DNA from: Akkermansia muciniphila
GTDB taxonomy: Bacteria; Verrucomicrobiota; Verrucomicrobiia; Opitutales; Opitutaceae
NCBI GenBank assembly: GCA_945888375.1
Contig: CAMCZZ010000007.1
Span: 689-64,688, forward strand
Reading direction: 5' to 3'
Length of the DNA: 64,000 bases
Positions 13,408 to 37,047 of this stretch are shown here, piece by piece. Made by a program: the position numbers and the translations under genes. Below the pieces are notes generated by a model, which saw nothing but the letters and a program-made list of their open reading frames with translations, made no database searches and had not been told where the DNA came from. Positions within the stretch are counted from its first letter, which is position 1. Every line of letters begins with the position of its first letter.

Positions 13408-13417
13408 CGGGCGGGCT

Positions 13418-18980: not shown

Positions 18981-20600
18981 TCAATCGGGAGACTGGTAGC
19001 TGGCCTTGGGCACGCGGATCAAAACGCTGCGGCAGTTGTAGTGCGCGGGTGGCGGAGAAAACCAACCGTCACCCCAGCGCCGACCGTGGCGGCCTTGGCA
19101 AAGGGGCGTGGTGCGGTTGTCGAGGGTCGCATCCCAAACGAGGTATTCATCGGCGGCGTTGGCCTCGGCGACCTGCTGTGGGAACGCGGCCTGTGCGGCG
19201 GCTTGGCGGGCGGACAGTTCGGCGGAGCTTTCGGAGGTCGCGTCAATCGGCGTGGCACAGCCGCACGCGCAGGATTTCGCCGTGGCCGGTGCGGTCTCGG
19301 GAGGCACGGCTTTTGCGACGGGTTTGGTAGGGATGAAGAGCGCGACGCCCGCGTCGGGGGTCGGCACTTTATGGCGTTCGTAGAGGTATTGGAGCGAGAC
19401 CGGCAGACCCATTTCTACGAAGAGGGTTTTGTCTCGGGCAGCCATGTCCTGTTCGCGACCGGGGCGCGAAATCTCTACCTCAACAAAGGGGATTTCCTCG
19501 GCGCTGCCCCAGTTGAGCGCGATCAACTGCGGGATGAGTTGGTCGTTAAGGATGGCGACGATGAACTCGGCGTATGTCTCGAACAGATCCAACTCGACCT
19601 CGCGATGAACCTCGCTGGCGGCGCGACTGCCCTGGCCGTTGTGTTCAACTGACAGGTTCTGACCGAGTAGCATGATGTCGCATGCGCGGTCGGCGATGCC
19701 CATGAGGCGTTCGCTCGGATCGTTTGGGCCGGACACACCGGGCGTGGTGCCTTGCAGGATTTGCAGATTGGTGCCCTGCGGAAACGCGCCCCAAGAGGCG
19801 GTGCCCATGTTGCGGAGAGCGGCGGTTATGGCGTCGATTTCGGCCTGAGTGGCGGTCGTCGGGTAGTTGGCCCAGCGCAAGGGCGTGCCGAAAAGTTCGG
19901 CCTTCTGAACGAGCCATTCCCAACCGAGCATGTGACCGAGCCAAAGCGGAGCGAGGGCGCGGAGCTGCGCGGCTTCGCCTAGTGCGCCGGATTTGGACTG
20001 AAAAACACCGGTCAGGAATTTGCCGGGGTGTTTGGCGAAGGGCGTGAGTGTAGAGAACGCGGCGGGGTCGAGGCGGAGTGCGAGGGTGCCGTCGGTGTTG
20101 ATACCGAGGTAACGAGACGGGACGCGACGGAAGCCGACCGGGACGACGAAGCCGGTGGTGTCGGTCGTCCAGTCGATCTCGACGACGGACAGGCCTCGCG
20201 CGACGGCGTCCATGAGTTCGTAAACGGCAGAGCCGAGCGGGGCGCGCGTGGTGTCCACGTAGCCGCGTTGGAGATGGAGCGCGGATTCGACGAAGGCGGC
20301 TTTTTCCTGCGCGGACGCGGAGGGCTTGCCGTTCTTGGGAGTGAAGGGCTGCACGTTGAGCGGCAGCTTGCGGATGGCATTCTTGATCTTCTGAAGGTTG
20401 GCGCGGAGGCGCGGCCAGGTGTCCTCCATAAGGTTGAAAAGATCGCTCTGCGCGGCGAGGTCGCCACGGGCGCCGGCGTCGAGCAACGCGCCGACGGCAT
20501 CGGGCGAAAGGCAGCGTCCGAAAAGCTGTGGCTCGAAGTCGCGAGCGGACGGACGAATGACGGGCGCGGCGAGTTTGGCGGGAGACGGTGAATCACTCAT
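18981..20600 (-). CDS. Portal protein (DUF935 / Mu gp29-like) fused to a Mu gpF / SPP1 gp7-like minor head domain
   Basis: 539 aa. The N-terminal ~430 aa is portal-like (LFNLMEDTWPRLRANLQKIKNAI). The C-terminal tail carries TTPLCQGRHGRRW...HYNCRSV, resembling the MuF-family Cys/His motif. Confidence 0.65.
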   Translation of the reverse strand: MSDSPSPAKLAAPVIRPSARDFEPQLFGRCLSPDAVGALLDAGARGDLAAQSDLFNLMEDTWPRLRANLQKIKNAIRKLPLNVQPFTPKNGKPSASAQEKAAFVESALHLQRGYVDTTRAPLGSAVYELMDAVARGLSVVEIDWTTDTTGFVVPVGFRRVPSRYLGINTDGTLALRLDPAAFSTLTPFAKHPGKFLTGVFQSKSGALGEAAQLRALAPLWLGHMLGWEWLVQKAELFGTPLRWANYPTTATQAEIDAITAALRNMGTASWGAFPQGTNLQILQGTTPGVSGPNDPSERLMGIADRACDIMLLGQNLSVEHNGQGSRAASEVHREVELDLFETYAEFIVAILNDQLIPQLIALNWGSAEEIPFVEVEISRPGREQDMAARDKTLFVEMGLPVSLQYLYERHKVPTPDAGVALFIPTKPVAKAVPPETAPATAKSCACGCATPIDATSESSAELSARQAAAQAAFPQQVAEANAADEYLVWDATLDNRTTPLCQGRHGRRWGDGWFSPPPAHYNCRSVLIRVPKASYQSPD

Positions 20601-20615: not shown

Positions 20616-21983
20616 TCATCGCGCCCACGCTCCGCGAAAGCGGGTGAGCGCGGGCCGGTGGTGGCCGTTCATGCCGGTCGGCACGCGGGTTGATGCAAAG
20701 GCTCCCCAACCCGCACCGGGGTTGCGCTGGGCGGCATGGATGGCGAGTGCGAGCGCGGTGGAGCGGTCGGCGTGACCGTCGGCGGTGCGAGCGGCGGCGT
20801 AGCGGATGGTGCCGCCGGGGCTGACTATGCGTTGCATGCTGCCGAGGTCGTCACGGATGACGGCGGCGGCGGGCAGCGCGACGGTGCGAGCCTGCATGGA
20901 TTTCTTGAGCCGCTCGAACAGCTCGCGCTTGCGGTCGCCGGTGAAGGTGACGCCCTCCAAGCGGGTTTCGTCGAGCGCGGCGGCGAGGTGTTCGCTCACC
21001 GGGCCACCGATGCCGGTCGCGTCGATGGCGGTGAACGCTGCGGCCATGACGCGCGGGGCGAGGATGGCCTCTTGCTGAGGGAATGGAATGCGGTCGAGAA
21101 CCAGCACCTCGCGGGTGATGAGTGGGCCGCCGGGCAAACGCTCCAACGTCCAGGCGACGGTAAGGTCGCGTTTGCGGCCAACGTCGATGCCGACGAAGAG
21201 CGCGGGACGGATGCGTGACTCGCGCGAAAACAATTCTTCGGGCGCGTCGAGGGTGGCGTCGTCGGACTCGCAGGCGCGGACAAGATCGGCCGGGAACACC
21301 TGAGACGAGTGCTCCATGAACTGACACTCGAACTCCTGCGCCCAACCGTCGGGATCGGCGAGATTAGCCCGGAGTTCCTCGATGTTGAGCGCGAGGCCGC
21401 TCGCGACGGCGTCGTAAACCGTGGTCTTGTGGCGGGAGAAAGCCGGGGCGTGTTCCCAAAGGTCGAAATACTTGTTGTTGCGACCGGCGGGCGTGGAGAT
21501 GACGCGCAGCTTCAACGCACCGCGCAGTGGGTTGGAGATGATCGGATAAACCGCGCGCCAGATTTCCTCGGGGTTCTCGTGAAACGCGAACTCGTCGAGG
21601 ACGAGGTTGGCGGAGTAGCCGCGTGCGGTGGCGGGGTTCGCCGGGAGAGCGAGGACGCGGGCACCGTTGGGAAAACGAAGCTGCGACTTCTGCACCTCGG
21701 GCCGGTATTCTTTTCCGGTGGAGTAGCTGATGGCGTCGCAGAAGATGGACGCGGCACGTTGCACCTTGTCCATGAACTCAAGGGCCTGCCGTTCGCCCGC
21801 GCTGAGAATTACCCAGTCGCCGCCGGTTTCGAGCGCGTCGGCGACGACCTCGAATGACGCCGCGAGCGAGCCGCCGATCTGGCGGGACTTGAGCCAGATT
21901 TTGAAACGGGCGTCGTCTCGAACCCACGCGAGTTGGTAGGGCAAGAGAAGATCGAGGGGCGTGACCTTGAGCTTCTTGCTCAT
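20616..21983 (-). CDS. terL: Terminase large subunit
   Basis: ATG at 21983 overlaps the terS stop (ATGA). 455 aa. ATPase N-terminal region (PYQLAWVRDDARFKIWLKSRQIGGSLA, Walker-A-like), LVLDEFAF Walker B, and a C-terminal RNase-H-like nuclease region. Confidence 0.75.
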   Translation of the reverse strand: MSKKLKVTPLDLLLPYQLAWVRDDARFKIWLKSRQIGGSLAASFEVVADALETGGDWVILSAGERQALEFMDKVQRAASIFCDAISYSTGKEYRPEVQKSQLRFPNGARVLALPANPATARGYSANLVLDEFAFHENPEEIWRAVYPIISNPLRGALKLRVISTPAGRNNKYFDLWEHAPAFSRHKTTVYDAVASGLALNIEELRANLADPDGWAQEFECQFMEHSSQVFPADLVRACESDDATLDAPEELFSRESRIRPALFVGIDVGRKRDLTVAWTLERLPGGPLITREVLVLDRIPFPQQEAILAPRVMAAAFTAIDATGIGGPVSEHLAAALDETRLEGVTFTGDRKRELFERLKKSMQARTVALPAAAVIRDDLGSMQRIVSPGGTIRYAAARTADGHADRSTALALAIHAAQRNPGAGWGAFASTRVPTGMNGHHRPALTRFRGAWAR

Positions 21984-22501
21984 GGTGACGCTTCCTTGGC
22001 CGGGGGCGCGGGCTCGACGGCACCGAGGCGTGAGCGCCAATCGCGCATGATGTCTTTTTCGCGGTCGGCGGTGATGTTGACTTGGGTGGCGACAACCGTG
22101 GCCGGTTTGTCGGAATAGACCTCCGGCTTATGGGCCTTCAGAAAGAAGATGAGACAGGCGTCGGAGTAGCGGCGGCGTTCTCCGCACAGCTGGCCCTTCG
22201 CGTCGAAAACCGGCTCCGTCCAACCGTCGATGCCACGGCGTTTCAACTCTTGTTCGGCATCCTCGATGCGAGACGCGTTCCGCACGCGGTCGCGTTCGAG
22301 CTGGGCGGATTGGAGCACCGGCACAAGATCGGGCTGGCGCTGCAAGTGGCGGTAGAACGTGGAATGGTCGATACCCTGCTTCTCGATTGCGGTCGCAGTC
22401 GGTGCGCCGTCGCGGATGTCGGCCACGACTCGCTCGAACAAGGCCGTGCTGAACTTGGACAGCCGTCCGGGTTTGTCGGACTTGGGAACCGTGATGGGCA
22501 T
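21980..22501 (-). CDS. terS: Terminase small subunit-like DNA-binding protein
   Basis: 173 aa with an N-terminal HTH-like segment and the RRYSDACLIFFLKAHKPEVY motif common in small terminases. Immediately upstream of and coupled to terL. Confidence 0.55.
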   Translation of the reverse strand: MPITVPKSDKPGRLSKFSTALFERVVADIRDGAPTATAIEKQGIDHSTFYRHLQRQPDLVPVLQSAQLERDRVRNASRIEDAEQELKRRGIDGWTEPVFDAKGQLCGERRRYSDACLIFFLKAHKPEVYSDKPATVVATQVNITADREKDIMRDWRSRLGAVEPAPPAKEASP

Positions 22502-24099: not shown

Positions 24100-24618
24100 T
24101 CAGGCGGCGAGGTCGTCGTGGAGCTTCTTGAACCAAGCGAGTTCGTTGCGGAGGAGACGGCGGGCTTGAGGCGACCATTTCGACAAGGGCTCTTCCTCGA
24201 TGCGTTGATGGAACCAGCGGCGGAATTGGTCGAGGCCACGAACGTAGTTTACGGTCGGGGTGTTGGCGTCGGGTTCGCGACGTTGACGGGGCGAATCCGG
24301 CAATACCCCCGTGGCCATGTAGGCTTGGCGGAGACCGGCGGCGTCATCGAGCACGGTGTCGGGCGCGTGCTTGGCGAGCTTCATGTAGCGGCGGGCGGTC
24401 GGGGCGGAGATGGCGGGACAATGGGCGGCCAGCCAGTCCTGCCAGGTGCCATGTGGGAGGGCATCCTTTTGGAGATTGAGGAGGCGACCACATTCGAGGG
24501 CGCGGGCGACGGCTTGGCGGGCGTTAAGGGTGGCAGCGGCGGCGGTAGCGCTGACCTCGGAAAAGGCGGCGTTGATCTCGGGGGCGAGATTGAGGGAGAG
24601 GGCGGAATCAGTGGACAT
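24100..24618 (-). CDS. DUF3102-like phage/plasmid protein
   Basis: 172 aa. CGRLLNLQKDALPHGTWQDWLAAHCPAISAPTARRYMKLAKH matches the characteristic DUF3102 core. Confidence 0.55.
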   Translation of the reverse strand: MSTDSALSLNLAPEINAAFSEVSATAAAATLNARQAVARALECGRLLNLQKDALPHGTWQDWLAAHCPAISAPTARRYMKLAKHAPDTVLDDAAGLRQAYMATGVLPDSPRQRREPDANTPTVNYVRGLDQFRRWFHQRIEEEPLSKWSPQARRLLRNELAWFKKLHDDLAA

Positions 24619-25387
24619 GATGGGCGGTGGATTTGAGTTTTGAGAGGTGGTTTAGGCGGGACTTGCGATAGGACTGGCGGGCGCGTTTTGAACGCATCCC
24701 CCGTGAGGGAGGGAGGGCGAAGGTCTGCGACCACTGAACGACGAGGCGGGAAAACGCGGCTCGGGTGACGCCGTGGCGCTTGGCGAGGGCGGTCTCGCTC
24801 AAGCCCTCGATGTCCATGAGGCCCGAGGCGAAACATGCGGCGTCGAAGGCGAGGAGCGGATTGGGGTGGGCTCGGATGCGGGCACAGAACGAGGCGAGGA
24901 TGTCACCGGCCGCGAGGTAGCCCCCCGGTGTTGGGGAGGAGTCGGCGGCGGGAGTGGGAGTGGCGGAGGTGACGGACTGGGCGGCTTGCTTCGCGGCGAA
25001 GGCGCGTTCGTCGTCCTCCTCTACCTGGTCGTCGGGCTGTATGTCCGGCGACTCGGTCAACTCCATGACCGTCTCGTCGTCGTGCTGGGAGGTGTGGCGC
25101 TTGGTGTCGGGCTCGCCGAGACCTTGGGCGGCGAGGCGGGCGCGTTCATCAGGCGGGAGGGTGGCGAGCCAATCGCGGTAGGCGGTGGCGTATTCGGCAT
25201 CCCGTGCGTCCTGAAGATCGGCGGCGGAGAGCTGTTTTGCTCGTAACGATGAGACATGACTTTTCTTTGAGCCCCCAACCCCGACCCTCCGGCCCCTACA
25301 TATAGGGGCCTCGGGGTTCGGGGTAAGGTTAGGGGCGGAACCCCGAATCGGGGTCGAATCGGGGTTAGCTCGGGGTTCGGGGTTCAT
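24608..25387 (-). CDS. Hypothetical protein with C-terminal HTH (sigma-70 region 4-like). The 5' part overlaps the iteron cluster.
   Basis: ATG at 25387 overlaps the helicase stop (ATGA). No other canonical start occurs in frame until Met108. C-terminal LSETALAKRHGVTRAAFSRLVVQW is HTH-like. The start remains uncertain. Confidence 0.45.
   Translation of the reverse strand: MNPEPRANPDSTPIRGSAPNLTPNPEAPICRGRRVGVGGSKKSHVSSLRAKQLSAADLQDARDAEYATAYRDWLATLPPDERARLAAQGLGEPDTKRHTSQHDDETVMELTESPDIQPDDQVEEDDERAFAAKQAAQSVTSATPTPAADSSPTPGGYLAAGDILASFCARIRAHPNPLLAFDAACFASGLMDIEGLSETALAKRHGVTRAAFSRLVVQWSQTFALPPSRGMRSKRARQSYRKSRLNHLSKLKSTAHHVH
25277..25383. repeat. Iteron cluster plus AT-centred palindrome: candidate replication origin of the island
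   Basis: TCGGGGT occurs 6 times in direct orientation (25311, 25318, 25348, 25359, 25370, 25377) and twice inverted (ACCCCGA at 25278 and 25340). The palindrome GGCCCCTA-CATA-TAGGGGCC is at 25291..25310. The cluster lies immediately 3' of the helicase gene. Confidence 0.5.
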
Positions 25388-26475
25388 TGGCCGCCTCCTT
25401 TCACGTAAAGGCCTTTTCCGGCCCAGCGGATGACCCCCAGGCGTTTCATGTCCTTGATCCGTTTTTCTATCGTGCTGGGAACCCCGCCTCGTGCGGATTT
25501 GATGGCCTCCCCAAGTTCCTTCCATCGAAGTTCTGTGCGATTGGCGAAAACCTCATCGGCAATCTCGATCAACTCGGCCCGTCGTTTGTCGTCGGCGGAG
25601 GCAGCCTTGGACTCGGTGCTCAGGAACATTTCCTCCTCGTGGTTCCATTTGAACCGAGGAGCTTTTTCGGCGGTGATTTCCTGCCGCCGCGCGGGTTTGC
25701 AGAGGATCGTGATGATGTCCTCCTCCTTGCGGAGGTTGAAAACGGACTCGGCCTTGCGCTCGATCTGGCTACCCAAGTGACCGCGTGATTTCTCGGAGCC
25801 GGGGTTGAGGTGGAGGGCGACGATGATGACGCAACGGGTCTCGGTCGCGAGTTTGTGGAGCGTGTCCACAGTGGCCGTGGCCTCCTCAAGCGAGTTAACG
25901 TCGAGAGCTAGGTCGGCGACACCATCAATGAAGATTGCAGAGAGGCCACCCGGCTCGGCGGCGGCTTTGCGGGCCATGTGACAAACCGCAATCAAACGGT
26001 CGGCGGGGGATTCTAGCAAAAGGGAGTAGCTGGCGAAACGAGACGGTGCTTGCTCCAGTCCGGCGCGGCGGAGCACGGAAGACATCAAGCGGAAGTGGTC
26101 GCCACGAGATTGCTCAGTGTCGAAAACCAGAATGCTCCCCGTGACCGCAGGATTAGCGGTGAAGCCGAGGTAGTCGCGGGAGGCGTCGCCGATAAGCCCA
26201 CCCATCATTGCCGCCATCGTGGAGGACTTGCCGGATTTGAGGGCTGCGACCACGACGGCGAGGTTACCGGCGTGGAGGCACTCGATGTCGGCTAGCTTGT
26301 AAATCCAAGGCTCTACGGGAGGCGGATTATTGGGGTCGAAACGGGTAGATTCGATTCGAGCAATCAGCTGCTCCTTGAAAGTTTTTTCCTTATCGGCATC
26401 CGTGAACGCGGAACGACGTTCGTCTATGGCGGACGGGGAAGACGGTTTGGGAGAATAGGGTTTCGCAGGCATCAC
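25384..26475 (-). CDS. RecA-fold replicative helicase / AAA_25-type ATPase with C-terminal winged-helix
   Basis: Walker A (AALKSGKSSTMAAMM), Walker B-like (AIFIDGVADL), VIIVALHLNPG. Coupled (ATGA) to the upstream primase gene, a pairing typical of primase-helicase modules in satellites and integrative elements. Confidence 0.65.
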   Translation of the reverse strand: MMPAKPYSPKPSSPSAIDERRSAFTDADKEKTFKEQLIARIESTRFDPNNPPPVEPWIYKLADIECLHAGNLAVVVAALKSGKSSTMAAMMGGLIGDASRDYLGFTANPAVTGSILVFDTEQSRGDHFRLMSSVLRRAGLEQAPSRFASYSLLLESPADRLIAVCHMARKAAAEPGGLSAIFIDGVADLALDVNSLEEATATVDTLHKLATETRCVIIVALHLNPGSEKSRGHLGSQIERKAESVFNLRKEEDIITILCKPARRQEITAEKAPRFKWNHEEEMFLSTESKAASADDKRRAELIEIADEVFANRTELRWKELGEAIKSARGGVPSTIEKRIKDMKRLGVIRWAGKGLYVKGGGQ

Positions 26476-27506
26476 GAGTTTTCCTTGGATAGGCCCTCGA
26501 ACACATCGGCTGGGCAGTTGAGGGATTCCCCGTCAGTGGCGGCGAGGAGGTCGGCGAGATCCTTGATGGGTGCGTCGAAGGTGAAGCCGTCCACGGTGGC
26601 CCCGGCCTCCATGAGTTGAGCCGCCCAACGCTGGCCGGCATCGGAACCGGCGGCGTCGGCGTGCTCGAAGATTCTGACGTGCTTACCGGCGAAAAGCGGT
26701 AGGGCGTCGGGATGAATTGAAGCGGTGGCACCGGGGACGCAGACGACCGCAACCGTGGCGGCGCGTTTGGCGAGCCAAGCGAGGGTGTGGGCGGCAAGGA
26801 AATCAGGAGAACCCTCGCAAAAGAGAACGAGACGGCGGTCGCCGATGTCGGCTGCACCGATGGGCCAACCGGCGATGCTTCCCCCCAGCGTCCAGGCCTT
26901 GGCCTTGTTCCACGCCCACGGCTGGCCGTCCATGCGACGGACTTGGATAGAGCGACGGGCTGAATCGGTGATCGCCCAGGCCGGACGGGAAACCCCGTCG
27001 TCGGTCATGGTGCAACGGTGGAGTAGGCCACGCTGAGTGGCGATTTCGAGCCCGGCAAAAACCGGCCAACCTCGCACGCGCTGAATCTCCGCCAGGTCGC
27101 CGACCGTGGGAACGGTGAAGGCAGGGATGCGGAGAGGCTTTTTGGGCTGGGTGGGACGCGGAGCGGTCGGCGAAGGGGCGAGCGCGGCGATGCGGATCAG
27201 CTCGCGGGCAGCGTCGGCGGCGGAGCAGCCGAGAAGCCGCATGATGACGCCGATGGAGTCGAATGACTCCCCGGTCGCGAAGTCATGCGCGACCATGCCA
27301 TCGGGTCGGATAGAGAAGGAGGGCTTCTTGTCCTCTCTGAACGGGGATGAGATTAGCTGTCGGTCGGTCGCATCGAGAAGCCCGTAGGCTCTCAAGATGA
27401 CGAAGATCGTGGTGGTGGCTTTGGCCCGTTCGAGGGCGGAGGGAGGTGAAGAGGAGGAGGGCTGACGCATTTCTGGCTCAGGCATCTCCATCCCGCGACT
27501 CGGCAC
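26472..27506 (-). CDS. DNA primase (Toprim-domain, phage/plasmid type)
   Basis: The N-terminal segment ISSPFREDKKPSFSIRPDG is typical of primase zinc-binding-like regions. A Toprim-like acidic block is present (LVLFCEGSPDFLAAH ... VRIFEHADAAG). The start could be a few codons downstream. Confidence 0.6.
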   Translation of the reverse strand: MPSRGMEMPEPEMRQPSSSSPPSALERAKATTTIFVILRAYGLLDATDRQLISSPFREDKKPSFSIRPDGMVAHDFATGESFDSIGVIMRLLGCSAADAARELIRIAALAPSPTAPRPTQPKKPLRIPAFTVPTVGDLAEIQRVRGWPVFAGLEIATQRGLLHRCTMTDDGVSRPAWAITDSARRSIQVRRMDGQPWAWNKAKAWTLGGSIAGWPIGAADIGDRRLVLFCEGSPDFLAAHTLAWLAKRAATVAVVCVPGATASIHPDALPLFAGKHVRIFEHADAAGSDAGQRWAAQLMEAGATVDGFTFDAPIKDLADLLAATDGESLNCPADVFEGLSKENS

Positions 27507-27541: not shown

Positions 27542-29728
27542 TCAGGCGCTACTTCCCGCGTAGCGGGGAGCTACTTTTGGCGTAGCGGCTGGATGTGCGG
27601 CGACCAAGGAAGGCGGATCGAAGGCCCAAGAAACATACGGCTCGGGGTCGTAACAATTCTCAACGCCGAGGCGTAGTAGCTTCCGGTTGGCCAAGTGGTT
27701 CGCGAGTGCTTCGTCGTGCTCCCGAATCTCGTCGATAGTTCGGTCGATATTGTTTCGGAGCGCGTCACGCTCCCGCTTTCGAAGATCCTGAAGTTTTCGG
27801 CTTTTGCCGTCGGGGCCTACGTCTTTCCGCACGCGGCGTAATACGTCATCCATCACTTCTTCAATCCGTGCGGCTTCCTCCGGGTTGTTGAACTCTTTCG
27901 CATCACTTAGCAGGTCTCGGAGCTTGCTGAGCTCGTTTCGGTAACTCGCGATTGCGGTCTCATCCACCGCAGCGCCTCCGTCGGCCATCGGTAAACCGTG
28001 GGTCATGGCAAAACCGCTGGTGATCAATTCCTGCTCTGAAATCTGCCCGTCCAAGGCCATGTCGCACGCATCCACGGCGACGGCCGACCGCACCTCTGAA
28101 ACGGATAGAATCTCGCTCTGGGAGCGGAGTATCCGGTGGAGGTAGGCGCAGCCCTTTTCGTGGTGCTGAATAGGGAACGATTTCCCGTTGCTGAAACGAA
28201 TCTCCCAGACGTTGCCGCGACGCCACATGTAGTTTGCGGGCAAGTCTGGAGTTGTTGCCAATGCGTCGGGCGCCTGTGCGGTCATTCGGGTGTCGGTTAC
28301 GATCCGGATGAGGCAGTCGCCGGGTAAGCGCCGGTGGACCACATCAAGGGCATGTTTCTTTACCAGCGATTCAAGTGCCCGCTCAATGTCGCGGCCGTGT
28401 CGTTTATGCAGGTCGAGAAAGCGCTGTGCAGCCTGATCGGGTGACTGGTTGGGAATATACGCGACCGCGCGACCCATTTGGGGGAAGCTAGCCAGCAACT
28501 CATTCTGGGAGGTTATCATGCTCAAGGTGCGAGCACGCTCGATGTAGCCGGCGGTGAGGATGCGGTCGGCGTCTCGGCTCGGGGCTTGGGTGAATATGTC
28601 GAACTTGTAGTGCGAGGCGGGATCGAGGTCCTCGGCACCGATCGCGAACATGGCGAGCCGCCGGTCCAGACACTGCGAGCAGAGCCCGCAATGGGTGTGT
28701 TCGTTCGTGCGCTCCCAAGTATGAGCACAACTGACGGAGCGAGCGATGAGTGGCCCTTTGCCGGCATCAACGATGCGCCTGACAACATCCGCCTTCGTGT
28801 GCCAGAGGTAGGGGTTTTCGACCGTGAAAGTGGCTTCGCTTAGCAACGAGAAGAGTTTTGAAAAGCCGGCGAGAACGCGGGGATGGGTAGTCCGTGTTGC
28901 CCGGCCGCCAACGACCTGGGCGCACAACGGGAGATTCAGGCTGATAACGCCGTTTTCGTAGAAACGCAGCGATTGAAGCCCGACCAGCTTGGCCACCGCC
29001 GCGCCTAGACAGGCGAAGAGGAAGGAGCGGGTTCGTTGGGTGTATTCCTTCCCGAGCGACTTCGCTTTGTTGACCTCCATGCCGACGTGGAGCGGCGGTG
29101 CGGAGGGTCCGGCAAGCTTTGCCAAGTCCTCGCGCAGCCTGCGAATAATACCGATGTTTTTGCTCGTGGGGATGTGGGTGACGAACGCCACGTGGTTTCG
29201 CTCCCGTTCGATCTCGTCGATGGCACCGGCCAAGGAATCTAGACCTCCGGAAAACATCGCGACTTGATTGAAGGGCGCGCCAGTTATTGCCGGAGCCTCA
29301 AGGCCAAGGTATTGCTGTAGCGGCACGGGCTTCTTGGCCGGGTAAAAGTGGAACGTGAAAAAGTGGTCACCCAAAAAGCCCAAGAGATCCGAGAGAGTTG
29401 CTGTGACTTCGGGCCGTTTCCAGAAGTCAGGGCACCGGACCGGAAGGTGAAAGCGTAGTGATTGACGCCACTGCGCACCGAAAGTATCGGTATCCTGGCA
29501 AGAGCGTCGGACGGCTTGATCGGCGGCGTAAACGTAGGCGGCTATTTCGATGAGGTCATGGTAGACCGGGGGCAGTGAGCACGAGACGGATTGAGGCAGG
29601 GCCTCGATGCGGAGGTTCACTTTTTCCTCGGGCGGGCCGTGGAGCAAATGCAAGCGAATGGCATCATCCTCGTTCGTCTTGGCCGGTGCGGTCAGCCCGC
29701 CGCATAGGATGACGTTGTTAGTTCGCAT
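27542..29728 (-). CDS. Large QueC-like PP-loop ATPase (QatC/Cap9-like core) with unassigned N- and C-terminal extensions
   Basis: ATG at 29728 (MRTNNVILCGG). PP-loop SGGLDS within MFSGGLDSLAGAIDE. QueC-type Cys cluster HTHCGLCSQCLDRRL. 728 aa, against ~230 aa for housekeeping QueC. Overlaps the upstream gene by 11 nt. Confidence 0.65.
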   Translation of the reverse strand: MRTNNVILCGGLTAPAKTNEDDAIRLHLLHGPPEEKVNLRIEALPQSVSCSLPPVYHDLIEIAAYVYAADQAVRRSCQDTDTFGAQWRQSLRFHLPVRCPDFWKRPEVTATLSDLLGFLGDHFFTFHFYPAKKPVPLQQYLGLEAPAITGAPFNQVAMFSGGLDSLAGAIDEIERERNHVAFVTHIPTSKNIGIIRRLREDLAKLAGPSAPPLHVGMEVNKAKSLGKEYTQRTRSFLFACLGAAVAKLVGLQSLRFYENGVISLNLPLCAQVVGGRATRTTHPRVLAGFSKLFSLLSEATFTVENPYLWHTKADVVRRIVDAGKGPLIARSVSCAHTWERTNEHTHCGLCSQCLDRRLAMFAIGAEDLDPASHYKFDIFTQAPSRDADRILTAGYIERARTLSMITSQNELLASFPQMGRAVAYIPNQSPDQAAQRFLDLHKRHGRDIERALESLVKKHALDVVHRRLPGDCLIRIVTDTRMTAQAPDALATTPDLPANYMWRRGNVWEIRFSNGKSFPIQHHEKGCAYLHRILRSQSEILSVSEVRSAVAVDACDMALDGQISEQELITSGFAMTHGLPMADGGAAVDETAIASYRNELSKLRDLLSDAKEFNNPEEAARIEEVMDDVLRRVRKDVGPDGKSRKLQDLRKRERDALRNNIDRTIDEIREHDEALANHLANRKLLRLGVENCYDPEPYVSWAFDPPSLVAAHPAATPKVAPRYAGSSA

Positions 29729-30506
29729 CGGCCTCCGCTCTGACTCGCATTTCGGAGCGAATCTTTTCCATCGCATACCATCCAAACCGGGTAGAAGTCT
29801 GTCGGGTGATGTCGCCGCCTCCGGTGAAGCGGTTTTTGGAGAACCATTCGCCGCAGAAGCGTTCGACTATCACACTGGCCTCGCTGGTGTGTTTCGCCAT
29901 CGCCTCCTGAAAATCGGCCACTTGGGCGGTCGTGGCGAAGCGATGGCCGGCGCCAACCCTCGAGTGAAGGGTCTTTGATAAAAAGTATTCGAGGCAACTG
30001 CGGGAAACGCCTTCGAAGAAGGTTCTGGCCACTCCTGAAAACTCGGAGGGCCTGCCAAGCTTCGCGAGAGCGCCATGAACATCCGCAGCGGTGGGGGTAA
30101 AAAGAGGGCCAAGACCGTTTTCCAGGTGGCGAGTTATCGCGCCGACCAATGCATTTTGAGCGACTTCACCGAAATCGGTCTGACTGCCGCGCGCTTGGGT
30201 CTTGGCGTCCAATGTGCGATGAATTGCGCTGGCGACCTCCGCGATGGAGCTTCGCTCCGAAAGGGAAAAACCATGCTTGGCGAGGTGCGCCGATGGATCG
30301 GGTTTCTTGGCGGAAACCGCCAGTTGGGTCAAAAGGGCTGCCGCCTCGGCAAACCCGGGATCCTTTTGGATGCACTCGAAGGCCTTGTCCGCCGCCTGCC
30401 AGGTTGCCTCCGCGACTTGGCCAACGTCGGCACCATCGGCGAGCAGTTCGACGACAGCGCGCCAAGGTCTGGTGGATGGAAGGATACCAAGTCGAACGTG
30501 CCCCAT
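29718..30506 (-). CDS. Hypothetical protein, partner of the QueC-like gene (no recognisable motif)
   Basis: 262 aa from the ATG at 30506, or 267 aa from the TTG at 30521. Translationally coupled to the QueC-like gene. Preceded by an AT-richer 80-nt region. Confidence 0.5.
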   Translation of the reverse strand: MGHVRLGILPSTRPWRAVVELLADGADVGQVAEATWQAADKAFECIQKDPGFAEAAALLTQLAVSAKKPDPSAHLAKHGFSLSERSSIAEVASAIHRTLDAKTQARGSQTDFGEVAQNALVGAITRHLENGLGPLFTPTAADVHGALAKLGRPSEFSGVARTFFEGVSRSCLEYFLSKTLHSRVGAGHRFATTAQVADFQEAMAKHTSEASVIVERFCGEWFSKNRFTGGGDITRQTSTRFGWYAMEKIRSEMRVRAEADAN

Positions 30507-30600
30507 GAATCGTTGGGACAATACAGCAGTAGGGGAGCCAGAAGTTACACAAGCTTAGAGTTTATGCTTATTTTCTAAACCGCGCACGTGATCGTTTTGA

Positions 30601-30834
30601 TCAGCCGCGAGCCGGAATCTTGAGCTTGGTTCGGATGTGAATGCCGACCTCGGCGGCGTCGTAATAGACGAAGTGGCCGACGCGGTGATGGGGAATGCGG
30701 CGGAGCTTCGTCCACTCGCGGAGGGTGCGAATCGAGGGCTCGCGGCCGGTCGGAAAGATGCCGGAGGCGCGGAGACCGACGATGTCGGTGAGCTGGGAGT
30801 TCAGGCAGGGAGCGGAAACAGGAAGAGGATTCAT
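30601..30834 (-). CDS. Excisionase / AlpA-like HTH DNA-binding protein
   Basis: 77 aa. SIRTLREWTKLRRIPHHRVGHFVYYDAAEV matches the MerR-superfamily excisionase-type HTH. Lies adjacent to the integrase. Confidence 0.65.
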   Translation of the reverse strand: MNPLPVSAPCLNSQLTDIVGLRASGIFPTGREPSIRTLREWTKLRRIPHHRVGHFVYYDAAEVGIHIRTKLKIPARG

Positions 30835-30929: not shown

Positions 30930-32153
30930 TTAGCTTGCCGCAGCAAGCGACGGGGCCGGACAGGGGAACCGCAGCGCGCCTGTTTCGGCGATGGAGGGCG
31001 CGGCCTCCGTCGGCTGGATTGAGAAAAAGCGCTCCGCCTCGTCCTTGGTTTTCAAGTCGAGGTAGTGCTTGCGGATGATGCTCTCGGAGTTGCCAGCCTG
31101 CAAAGCGGCCTCGCCCATCGAGCGGTATTTGGCGACGTGCATCGAAATGAACGTGTGACGCATGATGTCGTGAGACAGGCCGAAGGTCTTGGCGATGGCG
31201 GCGCGCTCGTGCTGGAGGTTTGGCGCGATGATCGGGAAGCGGTCGAGGGGGTAGGCGCGGAGCCAGGCGGCGAGGTTGGGCTGAATCTCGACGCTGCGTT
31301 TCATGCGAACCTTCGAGACCTCGGGCTCGATCAGGATGACGCCCGTATCGAGACGGATGTCCTCCGGGCGGAGCTTGAGAATCTCGCCGGTGCGGACGCA
31401 CGGCCGGATGCCGGCGAAAAGTGCGAGGGCGAAGAATGGGACGAGTGCGCCGCCGTCGATCTGCTCGACGTGCCGCATGAGCTTCGCGGACTGCTCGGCG
31501 CTCAAGGTCTTGGCGGAGCCGCGACGATGGGCGACGCGAAGATGGGGCACCTTTTCGAGCGGATTGGCCGCGACCCAGTCTTGGCAGAACGCGAATTTGA
31601 GAAAGGTGAAGAGAATGCCGCGACGGTTGTTGAAGGTCTTCGGCTTCGGGTTGCCGCGCTGGCAATGCTGGGCCAAGGCCTCGCGGGAGAGCGTGGAGAG
31701 AACGCGACCGGGGAAAGCCTCGTCGAGGTCTTCGAGACGAAGGCGGATGTCCTTCAACTGGCAGGCGGAGAGCAAACCGCGCTCGTGCTCCTGCTTCTTG
31801 GTGGCGAGGTAAGCGGCCGTGGCCAGCTCGACCGTGATCTCGCGCTCGGGCGGGCGGTAGTTGGCTAGGGCGTAATCGAGGTAGAACGAGAGCGACTTGG
31901 GCGCGCCGTCGAGGCGACGGAACACGGACTCCGCCTCGCGGAGCTGGTCGTCGGAGAGGAAGGTCGAAGCGGCGCGGACGTTGGAGATGGCCTGCGCGGC
32001 CTTCGCCTCAAGGGCGGCTTTCTCTACGGCGGCCTCCTCGCGGGACTTGAAGTTTTTGCGGATGCGGACGCCGTGGAGCCAACCAGAGATGCGCCACGAG
32101 ATGACGCCGTTACGATTTTCAAAGCGGGAAACGTCGAATGAATTGTCAGGCAT
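30930..32153 (-). CDS. int: Tyrosine recombinase / phage-type integrase
   Basis: ATG at 32153. The longer track ORF runs into the tRNA and was trimmed. The catalytic region contains LFAGIRPC (Arg), HDIMRHTFISM (His-x-x-Arg) and IIRKHYL (Tyr). Lies next to the 3' end of the tRNA. Confidence 0.85.
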   Translation of the reverse strand: MPDNSFDVSRFENRNGVISWRISGWLHGVRIRKNFKSREEAAVEKAALEAKAAQAISNVRAASTFLSDDQLREAESVFRRLDGAPKSLSFYLDYALANYRPPEREITVELATAAYLATKKQEHERGLLSACQLKDIRLRLEDLDEAFPGRVLSTLSREALAQHCQRGNPKPKTFNNRRGILFTFLKFAFCQDWVAANPLEKVPHLRVAHRRGSAKTLSAEQSAKLMRHVEQIDGGALVPFFALALFAGIRPCVRTGEILKLRPEDIRLDTGVILIEPEVSKVRMKRSVEIQPNLAAWLRAYPLDRFPIIAPNLQHERAAIAKTFGLSHDIMRHTFISMHVAKYRSMGEAALQAGNSESIIRKHYLDLKTKDEAERFFSIQPTEAAPSIAETGALRFPCPAPSLAAAS

Positions 32154-32222
32154 TTTAGGTTGCCATGCCAAGTGGCAACCTAGCTGAACCGTTTCCGTAA
32201 GTCGCTCTTGTGGAGCGGTTAA

Positions 32223-32312
<90 letters not shown>

Positions 32313-32545
32313 AGGTTGCTGAATCGTCGCGGGCCGCGAGGCCTTTGGCGATGGGCGAAGGAAAAGAAAAACGCTTCTGCCTAGCCTAGGTCAATGGCGA
32401 AAATAATTCCAACCGCATCCTTTTCCAGCGTCCTGACCTTTTCGTTGGGCCGGGTTGGGAAATGCTGCTTGCGCGGCCTTGGTCCCATGCTTCTTTCTCG
32501 CCGCTCACTCACGCCCACTTTCCACGCCCAACGCCGCATTCCACC

Positions 32546-33058
32546 ATGGTAACTCCGAATTCCGAGCTGGCCTATAACACTAAGATCGAGGGCGACATCG
32601 TCGTGACCAGAGTTGACGCCGTGATCAACTGGCTACGCTCCAGCTCCGTCTGGCCCATGCCCATGGGCCTGGCTTGTTGCGCGATCGAACTGATGGCCAC
32701 CGCCTCCAGTCGCTTCGACATCGCTCGTTTCGGCGCCGAGGTCTTCCGCTTTTCCCCCCGCCAGGCCGACTGCATGATCGTCGCCGGGACCGTCACCTAC
32801 AAGATGGCCCCTCACCTCCGGCGCATTTACGACCAGATGGCTGAGCCCAAGTGGGTCATCGCGATGGGTGCCTGCGCTTCCTCCGGTGGCATGTATCGCA
32901 GCTACGCCACCCTTCAGGGCGTGGACCGCATCGTTCCGGTTGACGTCTATATCTCCGGCTGCCCCCCGCGGCCCGAGGCGTTGCTCGACGCCTTGATCAA
33001 GCTGCAGGACAAGATGACCCGCAACGGCGGCACCGCCAAACAACTCCTCTCGGCCTGA
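32546..33058 (+). CDS. nuoB: NADH-quinone oxidoreductase subunit B
   Basis: ATG at 32546. [15 protein letters not shown], and the [10 protein letters not shown] cluster-N2 cysteine motifs. Confidence 0.93.
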
Positions 33059-33101
33059 GCGCCGCTCCGGCCTTCCCGTTTCCGAATCTCGCCTCCCGCT
33101 C

Positions 33102-33746
33102 ATGTCCTCCCCCGCCGCCGCTCCCGCGACCGATCTGCTCGCCGTCTTGCAAGCCCGGTTTCCCGCCGCCGTCGCGCGCCCCAGTGGCGACCATCCCGCC
33201 TTCAATCTGCCCATGGCCGAGGTGCCCGCCGCCCTGCGTCTGCTGAGGGATGAACACGGCTACGATCTCCTGATCGACGTCACCGCCGTGGACTGGGACG
33301 TCGAGGCGAGCCCGCGTTTTTCCGTCGTCTGGCATCTGCTCTCCTCCACCGCCCATGGGTATGTCCGTATCGTGGCGGCTTGCGCCGACGACGCCGAACC
33401 CACCGCGCCGAGCGTGGTTTCTCTGTGGGCCGGGGCCAATTGGCACGAGCGCGAGACTTTCGACCTGATGGGTATCCGCTTCACCGATCACCCCGATCTG
33501 CGGCGTATTTTAATGTGGGACGGCTATCCCTTCCACCCCCTTCGAAAGGATTTCCCGCTGGCTGGGATCGAGACCCCGCTACCCGACCTCGAGGTCGCCG
33601 ATATCACCAAGGCCACCGTCCTCCCCGCCCCCATGATGGGCGGCCCCTTTGTCGCCTCCACCGGCGAGATGAACCTCACCGAAGCCGAGCCGCGCGCCAA
33701 GGACGAGTCCTGGAACGAACGCAACGCCAAGCCCGCCGTCCTCTGA
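33102..33746 (+). CDS. nuoC: NADH-quinone oxidoreductase subunit C
   Basis: ANWHERETFDLMGIRFTDHPDLRRIL signature. Confidence 0.9.
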   Translation: MSSPAAAPATDLLAVLQARFPAAVARPSGDHPAFNLPMAEVPAALRLLRDEHGYDLLIDVTAVDWDVEASPRFSVVWHLLSSTAHGYVRIVAACADDAEPTAPSVVSLWAGANWHERETFDLMGIRFTDHPDLRRILMWDGYPFHPLRKDFPLAGIETPLPDLEVADITKATVLPAPMMGGPFVASTGEMNLTEAEPRAKDESWNERNAKPAVL

Positions 33747-33778
33747 GCCCTGCCTCGCAACCCGCAAACTTTCCCTCC

Positions 33779-35017
33779 GTGCCTACCGATTACGCTTTCC
33801 CTGACAGCGCCGCGAAGACCGCGAACGCCATCGAGGCTCCCGAGTTCCAGACCGAGAAGATGTCCCTCTCGATGGGGCCATCCCATCCCTCGACCCACGG
33901 CGTGCTCCGCCTCCAGCTCGAGCTCGACGGTGAGATCGTGACGGGTTGCGACCCGGTCCTCGGCTACCTCCACCGCGGTGACGAAAAGATCGCCGAGAAC
34001 ATGACCTACAACCAGTTCGTGCCCTACACGGACCGGTTGGATTACCTCGCCCCGCTGGCCAACAACGTCGCCTACGCCTGCGCCGTCGAGCGCCTTGCCA
34101 AACTCGAGGTGCCCGAGCGATGCCAGGCCATCCGCGTGATCTGCTCCGAGATGGCGCGCGTTTCCGCCCACCTCCTCGGCCTCGGCGCCTATGGTATCGA
34201 CGTAGGCGCCTGGGCCATTTTCCTCTACACCTTCACCGAGCGCGAAAAGCTTTATAAACTCTTCGAGGAGCTCACCGGCGCCCGCTTCACCACCAGTTAC
34301 ACCCGTATCGGCGGGGTCGCCCGCGATGTGCCCGAGGGCTGGGTCGAGAAAGTGGACGCCTTCTGCGATCAGTTCCTGCCGATTTTGGAGAACATCCTTA
34401 ATCTCCTGACTCGCAACAAGATCTTCATCGACCGCACCCAGGGTGTGGGCATCATCTCGAAGGCTGACGCCCTGGCCTACGGCCTTACCGGCCCCAATCT
34501 GCGCGGCTCCGGCGTCCCGCTCGATCTGCGCAAGGACAAGCCCTACTCCGGCTATGAGCGCTACGAGTTCGACGTCGCCATCGGCGCGCACGGCGACTGT
34601 TTCGACCGCTACATGGTGCGCGGCGAGGAGATGCGCCAGTCGGTGCGCATCATCAAGCAGGCCATCAAGAGTTTCCCCAAGGGCGACTGGTATTCCAAGG
34701 ATGCCGTGCGCATCTTCGCGCCGCGCAAGGACAAGGTCCTCACCAGCATGGAGGAGTTGATCAACAACTTCATGATCACCACCGAGGGCCCCCAGATGCC
34801 TTCCGGCGAGGTTTACTTCGAGGCCGAGGTGCCAAAGGGCGCGCTGGGCTTCTTCATCGTCAGCAAGGGTGGGGGAGTGCCCTACCGCATGAAGATCCGC
34901 AGCCCCAGCTTCTGCAACCTCTCCATCCTGCCCAAGGTCTGCCAAGGCAACCTTGTCTCCGACGTCGTCTCCATTCTCGGTTCCCTCGACTTCGTGATGG
35001 GCGAGTGCGACCGGTGA
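33779..35017 (+). CDS. nuoD: NADH-quinone oxidoreductase subunit D
   Basis: An in-frame GTG at 33779 gives 412 aa. MGPSHPSTHGVLRL near the N-terminus and the C-terminal LGSLDFVMGECDR motif. Confidence 0.9.
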   Translation: MPTDYAFPDSAAKTANAIEAPEFQTEKMSLSMGPSHPSTHGVLRLQLELDGEIVTGCDPVLGYLHRGDEKIAENMTYNQFVPYTDRLDYLAPLANNVAYACAVERLAKLEVPERCQAIRVICSEMARVSAHLLGLGAYGIDVGAWAIFLYTFTEREKLYKLFEELTGARFTTSYTRIGGVARDVPEGWVEKVDAFCDQFLPILENILNLLTRNKIFIDRTQGVGIISKADALAYGLTGPNLRGSGVPLDLRKDKPYSGYERYEFDVAIGAHGDCFDRYMVRGEEMRQSVRIIKQAIKSFPKGDWYSKDAVRIFAPRKDKVLTSMEELINNFMITTEGPQMPSGEVYFEAEVPKGALGFFIVSKGGGVPYRMKIRSPSFCNLSILPKVCQGNLVSDVVSILGSLDFVMGECDR

Positions 35018-35033
35018 ATTCGAAACCGAATTT

Positions 35034-35123
35034 CCCACGAAACACACGAAAACACACGAAAAAACAATCCATCGCCCGACCCGCCGAATCTGACCTTTTG
35101 TGTCATTTCGTGTGTTTCGTGGG
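35034..35123. repeat. Intercistronic inverted-repeat element, family A copy 1 (nuoD/nuoE gap)
   Basis: Left arm CCCACGAAACACACGAAAACACACGAAAAAA, right arm TTTTGTGTCATTTCGTGTGTTTCGTGGG. 18 nt are perfectly complementary. Spacer ~32 nt. Confidence 0.85.
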
Positions 35124-35150
35124 CACCAATCTTCCTCCCTTTAGACTTCC

Positions 35151-35639
35151 GTGAATCTCAAGCCCGAAACCTTCCAGCGTATTGACGAAGTCATCACGCA
35201 TTATCCGGTTAAGCGCAGCGCCACCCTGCCGCTCCTGCACCTCGTGCAGGAGGATGCCGGCTACATCTCCGAGGAGGCCATTCTCTGGATCGCGCAAAAG
35301 CTCGAACTCCAGCCGATCAACGTCCTCGAGGTCGTGACGTTCTACCCGATGTTCCGCCGCGCCCCCATCGGTCGCCGTCACATCAAGGTCTGCCGCACCC
35401 TTTCCTGCGCCCTCCTCGGCGGCTACAAGACCTGCGAGACCTTCCAGGAGGAGTTCAAGACCACCCTCGGCGCCACTTCGCCCTGCGGCGAGGTCACGGT
35501 CGATTTTGTCGAGTGCCTCGCCTCCTGCGGCACCGCCCCAGTCGTTCTGATCGACGAAGTTCTCCACGAGAAGGTGGATGCGACCAAGGCCCGCCAGATT
35601 AGCGCCCAGATCCGCGCCGAAGCCGCCGCCCGCCAGTAG
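35151..35639 (+). CDS. nuoE: NADH-quinone oxidoreductase subunit E (2Fe-2S)
   Basis: Thioredoxin-like 2Fe-2S Cys pattern (KVCRTLSC ... ECLASCGTAPV). GTG start at 35151. Confidence 0.88.
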   Translation: MNLKPETFQRIDEVITHYPVKRSATLPLLHLVQEDAGYISEEAILWIAQKLELQPINVLEVVTFYPMFRRAPIGRRHIKVCRTLSCALLGGYKTCETFQEEFKTTLGATSPCGEVTVDFVECLASCGTAPVVLIDEVLHEKVDATKARQISAQIRAEAAARQ

Positions 35640-35644
35640 TCTCT

Positions 35645-35667
35645 CCTACTCGCTACCCGCTACTCAC
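35645..35667 (+). repeat. Shared pyrimidine-rich leader repeat, family D copy 1 (nuoE/nuoF gap)
   Basis: CCTACTCGCTACCCGCTACTCAC is identical over 23 nt to the nuoJ/nuoK gap copy. It follows the stop codon context GTAGTC in both places. Confidence 0.8.
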
Positions 35668-35688
35668 CACTCGCCCCTTTTTTCTCCG

Positions 35689-37047
<1,359 letters not shown>

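Follow-up and report, generated by a model that had tools for sequence, protein, structure and literature searches.

The stretch analysed here, 64,000 nucleotides (nt) of Akkermansia muciniphila (GenBank assembly GCA_945888375.1, contig CAMCZZ010000007.1, positions 689 to 64,688 of the forward strand), is called the window below, and all coordinates are those of the window. On its minus strand it carries two overlapping genes, here named B and C. We read this pair, with a probability of about 0.6, as a self-contained two-gene relative of the QatB–QatC core of the anti-phage system QatABCD (Gao-Qat), which would serve as accessory anti-phage cargo of an element integrated at a tRNA-Ser gene, and in which protein C would conjugate a chemical group to Gly2 of protein B. 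QatABCD and its QatBC core are already known, and what is new here is a widespread two-gene relative of that core. B and C are almost invariably adjacent, and the Met-Gly start of B is nearly universal in its family.

Gene C encodes 728 amino acids (aa) and contains MFSGGLDSLAGAIDE. As the first-pass annotation of the window had stated, it carries the pyrophosphate-binding (PP-loop) motif SGGLDS (aa 160–165) and the Cys cluster HTHCGLCSQC (Cys 347, 350 and 353, with an additional Cys 334). The PADLOC model of QatC matches aa 51–372 (E = 1e-52), the NCBIfam QatC model NF041925 matches aa 55–381 (profile positions 11–334 of 398, 194.4 bits), and solved QatC structures are recovered from the PDB (9vlk at E = 3e-30, a second at E = 1e-21). 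By BLASTP, aa 58–459 align with aa 58–445 of a canonical QatC of 446 aa from a Roseivivax plasmid (29% identity, E = 8e-36), and the BLASTP and tblastn alignments reach the last residues of canonical QatC. Judged by these PADLOC, PDB and BLASTP matches, the sequence of C is unambiguously QatC-type. The flanks of the PP-loop core had been described as unassignable. However, because the BLASTP alignment runs end to end, the first ~150 aa and the ~95 aa that follow the Cys cluster are the extensions of QatC itself, and only aa ~461–728 (~270 residues) are extra relative to QatC. The Pfam QueC match had been predicted for aa ~175–420, whereas it covers only aa 291–359 (25 bits), and TIGR00364 reaches 18.5 bits against a cutoff of 150. 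Overall, C is 25–33% identical to the canonical QatC proteins of plasmids.

The residues that are characteristic of QatC are retained. Over 37 non-redundant family members of C, the invariant positions are D58, D70, R75, W87/R88, S160-G-G-x-D164-S165, R232-x-R234-S-F, E258-x-G260, T278-R-T280-T-H-P283, P306...T311-K312 and C334/C347/C350/C353-x-D-R-R. The family-invariant motifs are thus SGGxDS, RxRSF, ExG, TRTTHP, P(x)4TK and a CGxCxxCxDRR zinc site, and the same motifs are given as QatC-specific by Libby et al. (PMC13329287). The PP-loop motif corresponds to S156/D160/S161 of QatC, which is essential for defence (PMC13279940). The TRTTHP motif supplies the QatC-type Thr-x-Thr pair, which replaces the Tyr/Asp residues that bind 7-deazaguanine in QueC and Cap9; the role of this pair (T278/T280) has been described, and it is likewise essential for Qat defence (PMC13279940). 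The QueC motifs YxQxHxxE, VPxRN and YPDC are absent from C, as described for the QatC cluster (PMC13329287). At the level of sequence, then, aa 1–460 of C constitute a complete, full-length QatC-type PP-loop enzyme with all QatC signature residues, comprising the N-terminal domain, the SGGxDS motif, the Thr-x-Thr pocket with its preceding loop, the zinc ribbon and the helical C-terminal extension, which in canonical QatC serves as the QatB-binding platform.

Gene B, which ends with a TAA stop at 29718–29720, had been listed with a TTG start at 30521 (267 aa). Its homologues (77 from a word-indexed search and 150 listed representatives from an exhaustive search) are nearly all 257–265 aa long and begin with MGH, so that the start is almost certainly the ATG at 30506, which gives 262 aa. 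The family N-terminus, MGHVRLGxLPxTRxW, is nearly invariant, and the MGH start is found in 73 of the 78 B proteins of the genome loci and 67 of the 76 of the viral loci described below. A few B proteins of variant loci start differently, apparently with IGH in L174 and L178, with MGT in L175 and with MGN in L169. As had been noted for the upstream open reading frame (ORF), B has no recognisable motif: no Pfam, NCBIfam, PHROG or PADLOC QatB model matches it, and PADLOC gives only a weak AbiEi match (E = 0.004). The AlphaFold2 (AF2) model of B, with a predicted local distance difference test (pLDDT) score of 82 and a predicted template modelling (TM) score of 0.84, shows 11 disordered residues followed by ten helices. 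In a Foldseek search of the PDB with this model, which gave no significant match, the highest TM-scores by a wide margin are those of QatB chains (9y02_A, TM 0.43/0.50, probability 0.77; 9y01_A, TM 0.41/0.47), which come from crystals of Pseudomonas aeruginosa QatBC, and all other matches listed have a TM of 0.28 or less. Thus, B resembles QatB in position, overlap, size, helix count, exposed Met-Gly and a nearby Pro/Trp segment, but not in sequence, and the earlier description of the pair as minimal and QatB/QatC-like stands for C, for the missing QatA and QatD and for the extension, which is conserved, whereas for B it does not hold by sequence.

The pair is conserved as a unit. The reading of two minus-strand ORFs with an 11-nt overlap, in which the ATG of C at 29728 lies inside the end of B, was borne out, and this overlap implies translational coupling. 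In a scan of one genome per GTDB species, with an alignment of C as query (tblastn, E ≤ 1e-3), relatives of C were confirmed at at least 545 places, in hosts from at least seven phyla, among them Verrucomicrobiota, Planctomycetota, Pseudomonadota, Desulfobacterota and Acidobacteriota; a further 163 viral contigs of IMG/VR carry a relative. Neighbouring genes were sought with local hidden Markov model (HMM) searches in the best 80 of the genome places and the best 80 of the viral contigs. The first-pass annotation had proposed co-occurrence of the two genes as a test, and 78 of the 80 genome loci have B directly upstream of C, on the same strand (of the other two, one is truncated by the end of its contig), as 76 of the 80 viral loci have B upstream of C. 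The same −11 geometry is seen in most of the 78 genome loci and in 59 of the 80 viral loci. In addition, all nine independent metagenomic or genomic places with a B or C homologue show B (261–262 aa) followed by C (675–724 aa), eight of them with the 11-nt overlap, and a few copies of C are split. The exhaustive search places the B family in 1,669 clusters at 50% identity (E ≤ 1e-3), of which 477 remain at E ≤ 1e-30. Given these clusters and the many places with a relative of C, B and C are real genes rather than chance ORFs. Plasmid records yielded only canonical QatC (25–33% identity) and phage records two QueC-like genes of Listeria phages, in neither case the long form.

Split copies of C, in two or three ORFs, were seen in L001 (7066–9170), L002 (7248–8786) and L003 (8818–10846, with a run of N); these are possibly pseudogenes or assembly errors. 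They lie in a defence island with SIR2, RadC, AbiEi/AbiEii, DUF87 and a 1,438-aa AAA protein. Locus L061, on a contig assigned to an uncultured Bifidobacterium metagenome-assembled genome, has a cassette that is 41% identical to that of the window and of the type of the Pseudomonadota copies, as could result from an error in binning or from recent horizontal transfer.

The remaining components of QatABCD, the KAP nucleoside triphosphatase (NTPase) QatA and the TatD nuclease QatD, are missing from the pair essentially family-wide. HMMs built from the QatA, QatB and QatD sequences of seven Qat operons annotated on plasmids detect neither QatA nor QatD nor a canonical QatB in the 64-kb window, in agreement with what had been said of QatA and the TatD-type nuclease, and the QatD model matches none of the 160 related loci. 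The QatA model matches none of the 80 viral loci and one of the 80 genome loci, where the match is an unrelated-looking KAP NTPase fragment encoded on the other strand at a distance of 3.6 kb. A 77-aa winged-helix gene of the LexA_DNA_bind/MarR type is added in about half of the loci (41 of the 80 genome loci and 42 of the 80 viral loci); in all 41 genome loci it directly precedes B. It is also seen in L009 (6956–7189) and L011 (6954–7187), and the resulting three-gene cassette occurs in Pseudomonadota and Desulfobacterota. The corresponding HMM finds no such gene in the window, where the same position is held by a 77-aa excisionase-like helix-turn-helix (HTH) protein of the HTH_17 family, unrelated to that HMM.

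The closest parallel is QatBC itself, in which the partner gene likewise lies directly upstream of, and overlaps, the enzyme gene, and in which the partner is likewise a protein of ~260 aa, all-helical with ten helices, that begins with Met-Gly followed by a Pro/Trp segment. Canonical QatBC alone protects against phage lambda, and QatB and QatC form a 1:1 complex (PMC13279940). Gly2 and the Pro/Trp segment of QatB are essential for defence (PMC13279940, PMC13639016), and an N-terminal QatB peptide that carries the NDG modification has been detected by liquid chromatography–tandem mass spectrometry (PMC13639016). There are also clear differences, since QatC is without the extra ~270-aa extension of C, described below, and the canonical QatB proteins of the seven operons start with MGTSxSSxGP...PLxPxW, whereas B starts with MGH(V/I)RLG. 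Three of the four genes by which QatABCD is recognised are not matched here (QatB at the level of sequence), and C scores below the equivalog threshold of QatC; the pair should therefore not be filed as Qat. PADLOC 2.0.0 models recognise only QatC in the pair, profile searches do not place it inside any catalogued complete system, and in the full-text literature searched, neither QatC-type enzymes that bear this extension nor an MGH partner family nor such a two-gene family are described.

In the type IV cyclic oligonucleotide-based anti-phage signalling system (CBASS), the QueC-family enzyme Cap9 likewise has a partner protein, whose exposed glycine at the N-terminus accepts 7-amido-7-deazaguanine in an ATP-dependent conjugation: Cap9 ligates 7-carboxy-7-deazaguanine to Gly2 of its CD-NTase (cGAS/DncV-like nucleotidyltransferase) (bioRxiv 10.1101/2025.04.06.647259). 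We propose the same logic for B–C. However, Cap9 is minimal (~185 aa) and keeps the Tyr/Asp substrate residues of QueC, whereas C is QatC-type rather than Cap9-type. Moreover, the substrate of Cap9 is a nucleotidyltransferase, and type IV CBASS needs Cap10, a tRNA-guanine transglycosylase (TGT)-like protein, and an effector, none of which accompanies B–C. In line with the earlier statement on these genes, no CD-NTase or TGT was found among the ORFs scanned from the tRNA gene to 8.7 kb, which have integration, replication, head or restriction–modification (R-M) matches or no match.

Most plausibly, then, the pair works like QatBC. The complete conservation of the QatC catalytic set, together with the invariant Met-Gly of B, makes modification of Gly2 of B by C the most economical reading. 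Met1 of B would be removed, and the short flexible N-terminus of B would enter the active site of C. There, C would activate a carboxylate at the expense of ATP, with 7-carboxy-7-deazaguanine from the queuosine pathway of the host as the likeliest candidate or, given the Thr-x-Thr pocket, a related compound, and would ligate the 7-deazaguanine-type group to the alpha-amine of Gly2. More speculatively, the extra 270 residues of C, with a winged-helix-like and a basic helical domain, may bind nucleic acid and may take over, as part of the same polypeptide, the sensing or targeting that falls to the DNA-binding QatA and the nuclease QatD in QatABCD. Infection would then trigger or redirect the B–C complex, and phage propagation would be blocked.

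The C-terminal extension is conserved across the family in full-length homologue alignments. A search with aa 381–728 alone returned three proteins, all fragments of split genes; since the full-length searches show the extension to be conserved, this low yield reflects the limit of the word prefilter rather than rarity. The AF2 model of aa 365–728 has an overall pLDDT of 77, with helices at aa 385–478, a confident winged-helix-like beta-beta-beta-alpha-alpha unit at aa 500–560, a linker of poor prediction quality, then a helical hairpin (aa 590–636) and a confident helical segment at aa 649–693, in which the basic motif GGRxRKxxDxRKNxRDAxRN is conserved; conserved columns of the hairpin and basic-helix region are G641, R644, K651, D655, R663, H678, Y693 and W701. 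The top Foldseek matches of the extension are OmpR/PhoB-type DNA-binding domains (SaeR, PhoP, ToxR, GlnR and CadC; E = 0.75–3, none significant), and one member of the C family matches Pfam Trans_reg_C at E = 3.5e-4. For aa 590–700, neither Foldseek, Pfam, a profile search of PDB sequences nor the viral structures of BFVD gave an informative match; the extension profile returned only coiled-coil noise from the PDB sequences, and the extension model found nothing informative in BFVD.

About sixteen relatives on viral contigs, with B upstream, bear other tails after aa ~480. Of the ten variant tails tested, five are genuine Pfam Trans_reg_C domains (31–40 bits against a curated cutoff of 26.2) and sit at the same position as the winged-helix-like domain of C. 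The B-associated QatC-like proteins with an OmpR/PhoB-type Trans_reg_C C-terminus are those of L156, L157, L165, L174, L175 and L178 (IMG/VR, ~600–680 aa), five of them by Pfam and L178 by sequence similarity only, and the variants L152, L160, L162/L166, L171 and L177/L179 have further, unassigned tails. A metagenomic protein of 1,079 aa, P0342, is a natural fusion of a B-like domain and a QatC-like enzyme; its B-like domain starts with MHPVRFGSLPRTRSW, without Gly2, and its tail shows, on motif reading, the DxH, GD, GNHD and GH motifs of a calcineurin-like metallophosphoesterase in place of the winged-helix and helical extension. Given these tails, the slot after the QatC body is variable and often filled by a winged helix.

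Several observations weigh against our reading of B–C as a QatBC-like defence module. The structural match of B to QatB chain 9y02_A has E = 0.85 and is not significant, and no sequence homology between the two is detectable: hhalign of the B family against the seven canonical QatB proteins gives a probability of 0.6%, searches of PDB sequences with B as a single sequence or as a family profile find no QatB and return spurious helical proteins as best matches, and the NCBIfam and PADLOC models of QatB are silent on B. The disordered N-terminal tail is also shorter, at ~12 aa in B against 30–90 aa in QatB. As for C, its score of 194 bits lies below the 280-bit equivalog cutoff of NF041925, and its winged-helix assignment is tentative and lacks statistical significance, since Pfam finds no Trans_reg_C in the C protein of the window and hhalign of the long-form winged-helix region against genuine Trans_reg_C tails is in register but at a probability of 0.4%. 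The chemistry of canonical QatC is itself unsettled, in that reconstitution in vitro did not succeed and a different substrate may be bound in the Thr-x-Thr pocket (PMC13279940). Finally, the gap of 35 nt and the failure to find a terminator between C and the primase gene mean that B–C could be co-transcribed with the replication genes.

A more far-reaching proposal, which we offer tentatively and hold to be doubtful as it stands, is that B–C belongs to a distinct, widespread and unnamed defence family, in which the extension would sense phage DNA or a replication intermediate and so gate the conjugation of a nucleobase to Gly2 of a partner that has no sequence relation to QatB, with sensor, writer and substrate combined in two proteins. 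Were this so, the interchangeable tails, be they a winged helix with a helical domain, Trans_reg_C by itself or a metallophosphoesterase, would point to a modular "QatC-writer" superfamily that reaches well beyond QatABCD. The genes of the B–C family are currently annotated as "7-cyano-7-deazaguanine synthase" and "hypothetical protein". The family would also account for part of the observation of Libby et al. that, of the QatC-cluster genes, only about one third have qatA and qatD as neighbours (PMC13329287). Because it has two genes, is without QatA and QatD, has a DNA-binding-like domain of its own and uses a different partner family, B–C would be a simpler test system for the QatBC mechanism, and could be used to ask whether N-terminal deazaguanylation is a common mechanism, what triggers it and what the modified partner does.

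Other explanations have to be weighed against the defence reading. The pair may be a regulatory module of mobile elements, with C controlling transcription, replication or induction of the element and B as a modified co-regulator, as its place in the lysogeny/regulation region would suggest (beside the integrase and excisionase genes in the window, beside serine recombinases elsewhere), together with the predicted DNA-binding-like domain on C, the LexA/MarR-type HTH gene in half of the loci and the primase gene only 35 nt from C. We consider this unlikely, since the cassette also occurs away from phage genes (between housekeeping genes in L011, in defence islands in L001 and L005) and moves among unrelated elements with different integrases and replication modules, and its closest characterised relative is an immunity module. 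It is also improbable that B–C is a toxin–antitoxin-like addiction module that stabilises the element, in which one partner would inhibit growth, the other would restrain it and any anti-phage effect would be secondary, by abortive infection. An operon of two tightly coupled genes, borne on mobile DNA and optionally joined by a small HTH regulator, would fit such a module, as would the frequent adjacency of AbiE-type modules and the split or decayed copies of C (L001, L002). However, neither protein resembles a known toxin or antitoxin beyond the weak AbiEi match of B, and the conservation of every catalytic residue suggests an enzymatic writer rather than a simple neutraliser; moreover, this explanation overlaps with the defence reading and does not exclude it.

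A role of C in nucleobase metabolism, i.e., in queuosine/preQ0 synthesis or in 7-deazaguanine modification of the element's DNA, would agree with the public annotation of its homologues as "7-cyano-7-deazaguanine synthase" and with the Pfam and TIGRFAM QueC similarity at aa 287–359. C does share with canonical QueC (PF06508 cluster 1) the fold of PP-loop ATP pyrophosphatases and a C-terminal zinc-binding Cys cluster, but it is three times longer, the similarity to the QueC models is marginal and the QatC-type TRTTHP motif stands in place of the QueC substrate residues; E. coli QatC, in turn, fails to complement a queC deletion (PMC13329287). Neither the scanned ORFs of the window nor the 25 commonest Pfam families of 150 immediate neighbours from 38 genomes include queD, queE, TGT or DpdA. 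We regard such a role as very improbable, and a queuosine-pathway enzyme is rejected on conservation or motif grounds. That B–C might be a QatABCD operon decayed by loss of qatA and qatD has a single point in its favour, the absence of QatA and QatD. Against it, the two-gene architecture, the separate partner family and the 270-aa extension are conserved under selection (at at least 545 places and in 1,669 B clusters), and 25–33% identity to canonical QatC indicates a distinct lineage, so that this explanation is effectively refuted by the conservation data.

The positions of B, C and the other features of the element are collected in Table 1.

Table 1. Features of the B–C pair and of the surrounding element in the window.
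Feature	Position	Strand	Evidence or remark
Gene C, 728-aa QatC-type QueC-family PP-loop enzyme with C-terminal extension	27542..29728	−	ATG 29728, stop 27542–27544
QatC-specific N-terminal domain, C aa 1–150	29279..29728	−	Aligned to QatC residues 60–150; D58, D70, R75, W87, R88 invariant
SGGLDS PP-loop motif, C aa 160–165	29234..29251	−	Corresponds to the QatC PP-loop motif
TRTTHP motif, C aa 278–283	28880..28897	−	Family-invariant; lines up with STRTTHP in QatC
Zinc-binding Cys cluster C334 ... C347-G-x-C350-x-x-C353-x-D-R-R	28670..28729	−	Fits QatC pattern C(x)19CGxCxxRR (PMC13329287)
Helical region, QatC C-terminal extension, C aa 366–460	28349..28633	−	BLASTP/tblastn; AF2 helices aa 385–478
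Winged-helix-like beta-beta-beta-alpha-alpha domain (tentative), C aa 497–560	28049..28240	−	AF2 pLDDT ~90
Helical hairpin and conserved basic helix (predicted), C aa 590–700	27629..27961	−	AF2 pLDDT 90–97
Overlap of B stop and C start, 11 nt, ATGCGAACTAA	29718..29728	−	Sequence reading
Gene B, 262-aa all-helical partner, N-terminus MGHVRLGILPSTRPW	29718..30506	−	Homologue starts, AF2 model
AT-rich intergenic region upstream of B, possible promoter region (inferred)	30507..30600	−	43.6% GC against 63.5% for the window
77-aa excisionase/AlpA-like HTH protein	30601..30834	−	Weak Pfam HTH_17, E = 0.019, below cutoff
Tyrosine integrase	30930..32224	−	PHROG integrase E = 1e-18; Pfam Phage_integrase weak
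tRNA-Ser(GGA), likely integration site	32225..32312	−	ARAGORN
Primase-like gene, replication module	26472..27506	−	Starts 35 nt after the stop of C
AAA_25/DnaB-like helicase, replication module	25384..26475	−	
DUF3102 protein	24100–24618	−	
Small terminase	21980–22501	−	
Large terminase	20616–22040	−	
Portal	18981–20600	−	
Protease	17976–18965	−	
Scaffold	17542–17937	−	
Major head protein	16593–17495	−	
Type III R-M-like cluster with ABC-type ATPase	8748–16405	−	Directly after the head genes

The AT-richer region that had been noted upstream of the pair was confirmed. A scan of it for the sigma-70 consensus found no site, and the organism may use other promoter types. The pair itself had been described as lower in GC than its surroundings, which holds at 59.2% against 63.5% for the window, but the difference is mild, at the 8.5th percentile of sliding windows of the same length. 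The longest ORF of the integrase runs into the tRNA-Ser(GGA) gene, so that its true start lies further downstream. The placement of the pair between the integration and replication modules of a satellite-like element was likewise upheld, but a head-morphogenesis module is present as well, and the gene content points to a satellite-like element that encodes a capsid, or else to a prophage remnant, rather than to a minimal integration-plus-replication island. Up to the R-M cluster, no gene for tail or lysis functions was recognised, and no att repeat of 12 nt or more from the tRNA-Ser end, which would mark the left boundary of the element, was found at lower coordinates.

In other genomes, the cassette adjoins a serine recombinase and DUF2924 at the ends of prophage-like elements, and is also found among AbiE, GmrSD, SIR2, PLD-SNF2 and RloB/AAA_21 genes. 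The commonest Pfam families among the 150 immediate neighbours are DUF2924 (10), Resolvase/Recombinase (9) and SNase (6), and PADLOC models match Hma, type IIG R-M, PDC-M01, PtuA and Cas3 among them. These neighbourhoods are suggestive of a mobile defence cassette.

Four proteins are encoded in the type III R-M-like cluster, where GC is the lowest of the window (0.56–0.60): a type III-like DNA methyltransferase of 995 aa (PADLOC MTase_III, E = 4e-152), an ABC/AAA ATPase of 445 aa that resembles NsnB, PDC-M55A, HEC-03B and AriA, a protein of 180 aa, and one of 928 aa that weakly matches a type III restriction enzyme. On the other side of the element, genes for NADH:quinone oxidoreductase (NuoB-, NuoC-, NuoD-, NuoE- and NuoF-like, judged from their translations only; 32462–37047, plus strand) begin just past the tRNA gene and form the chromosomal flank.

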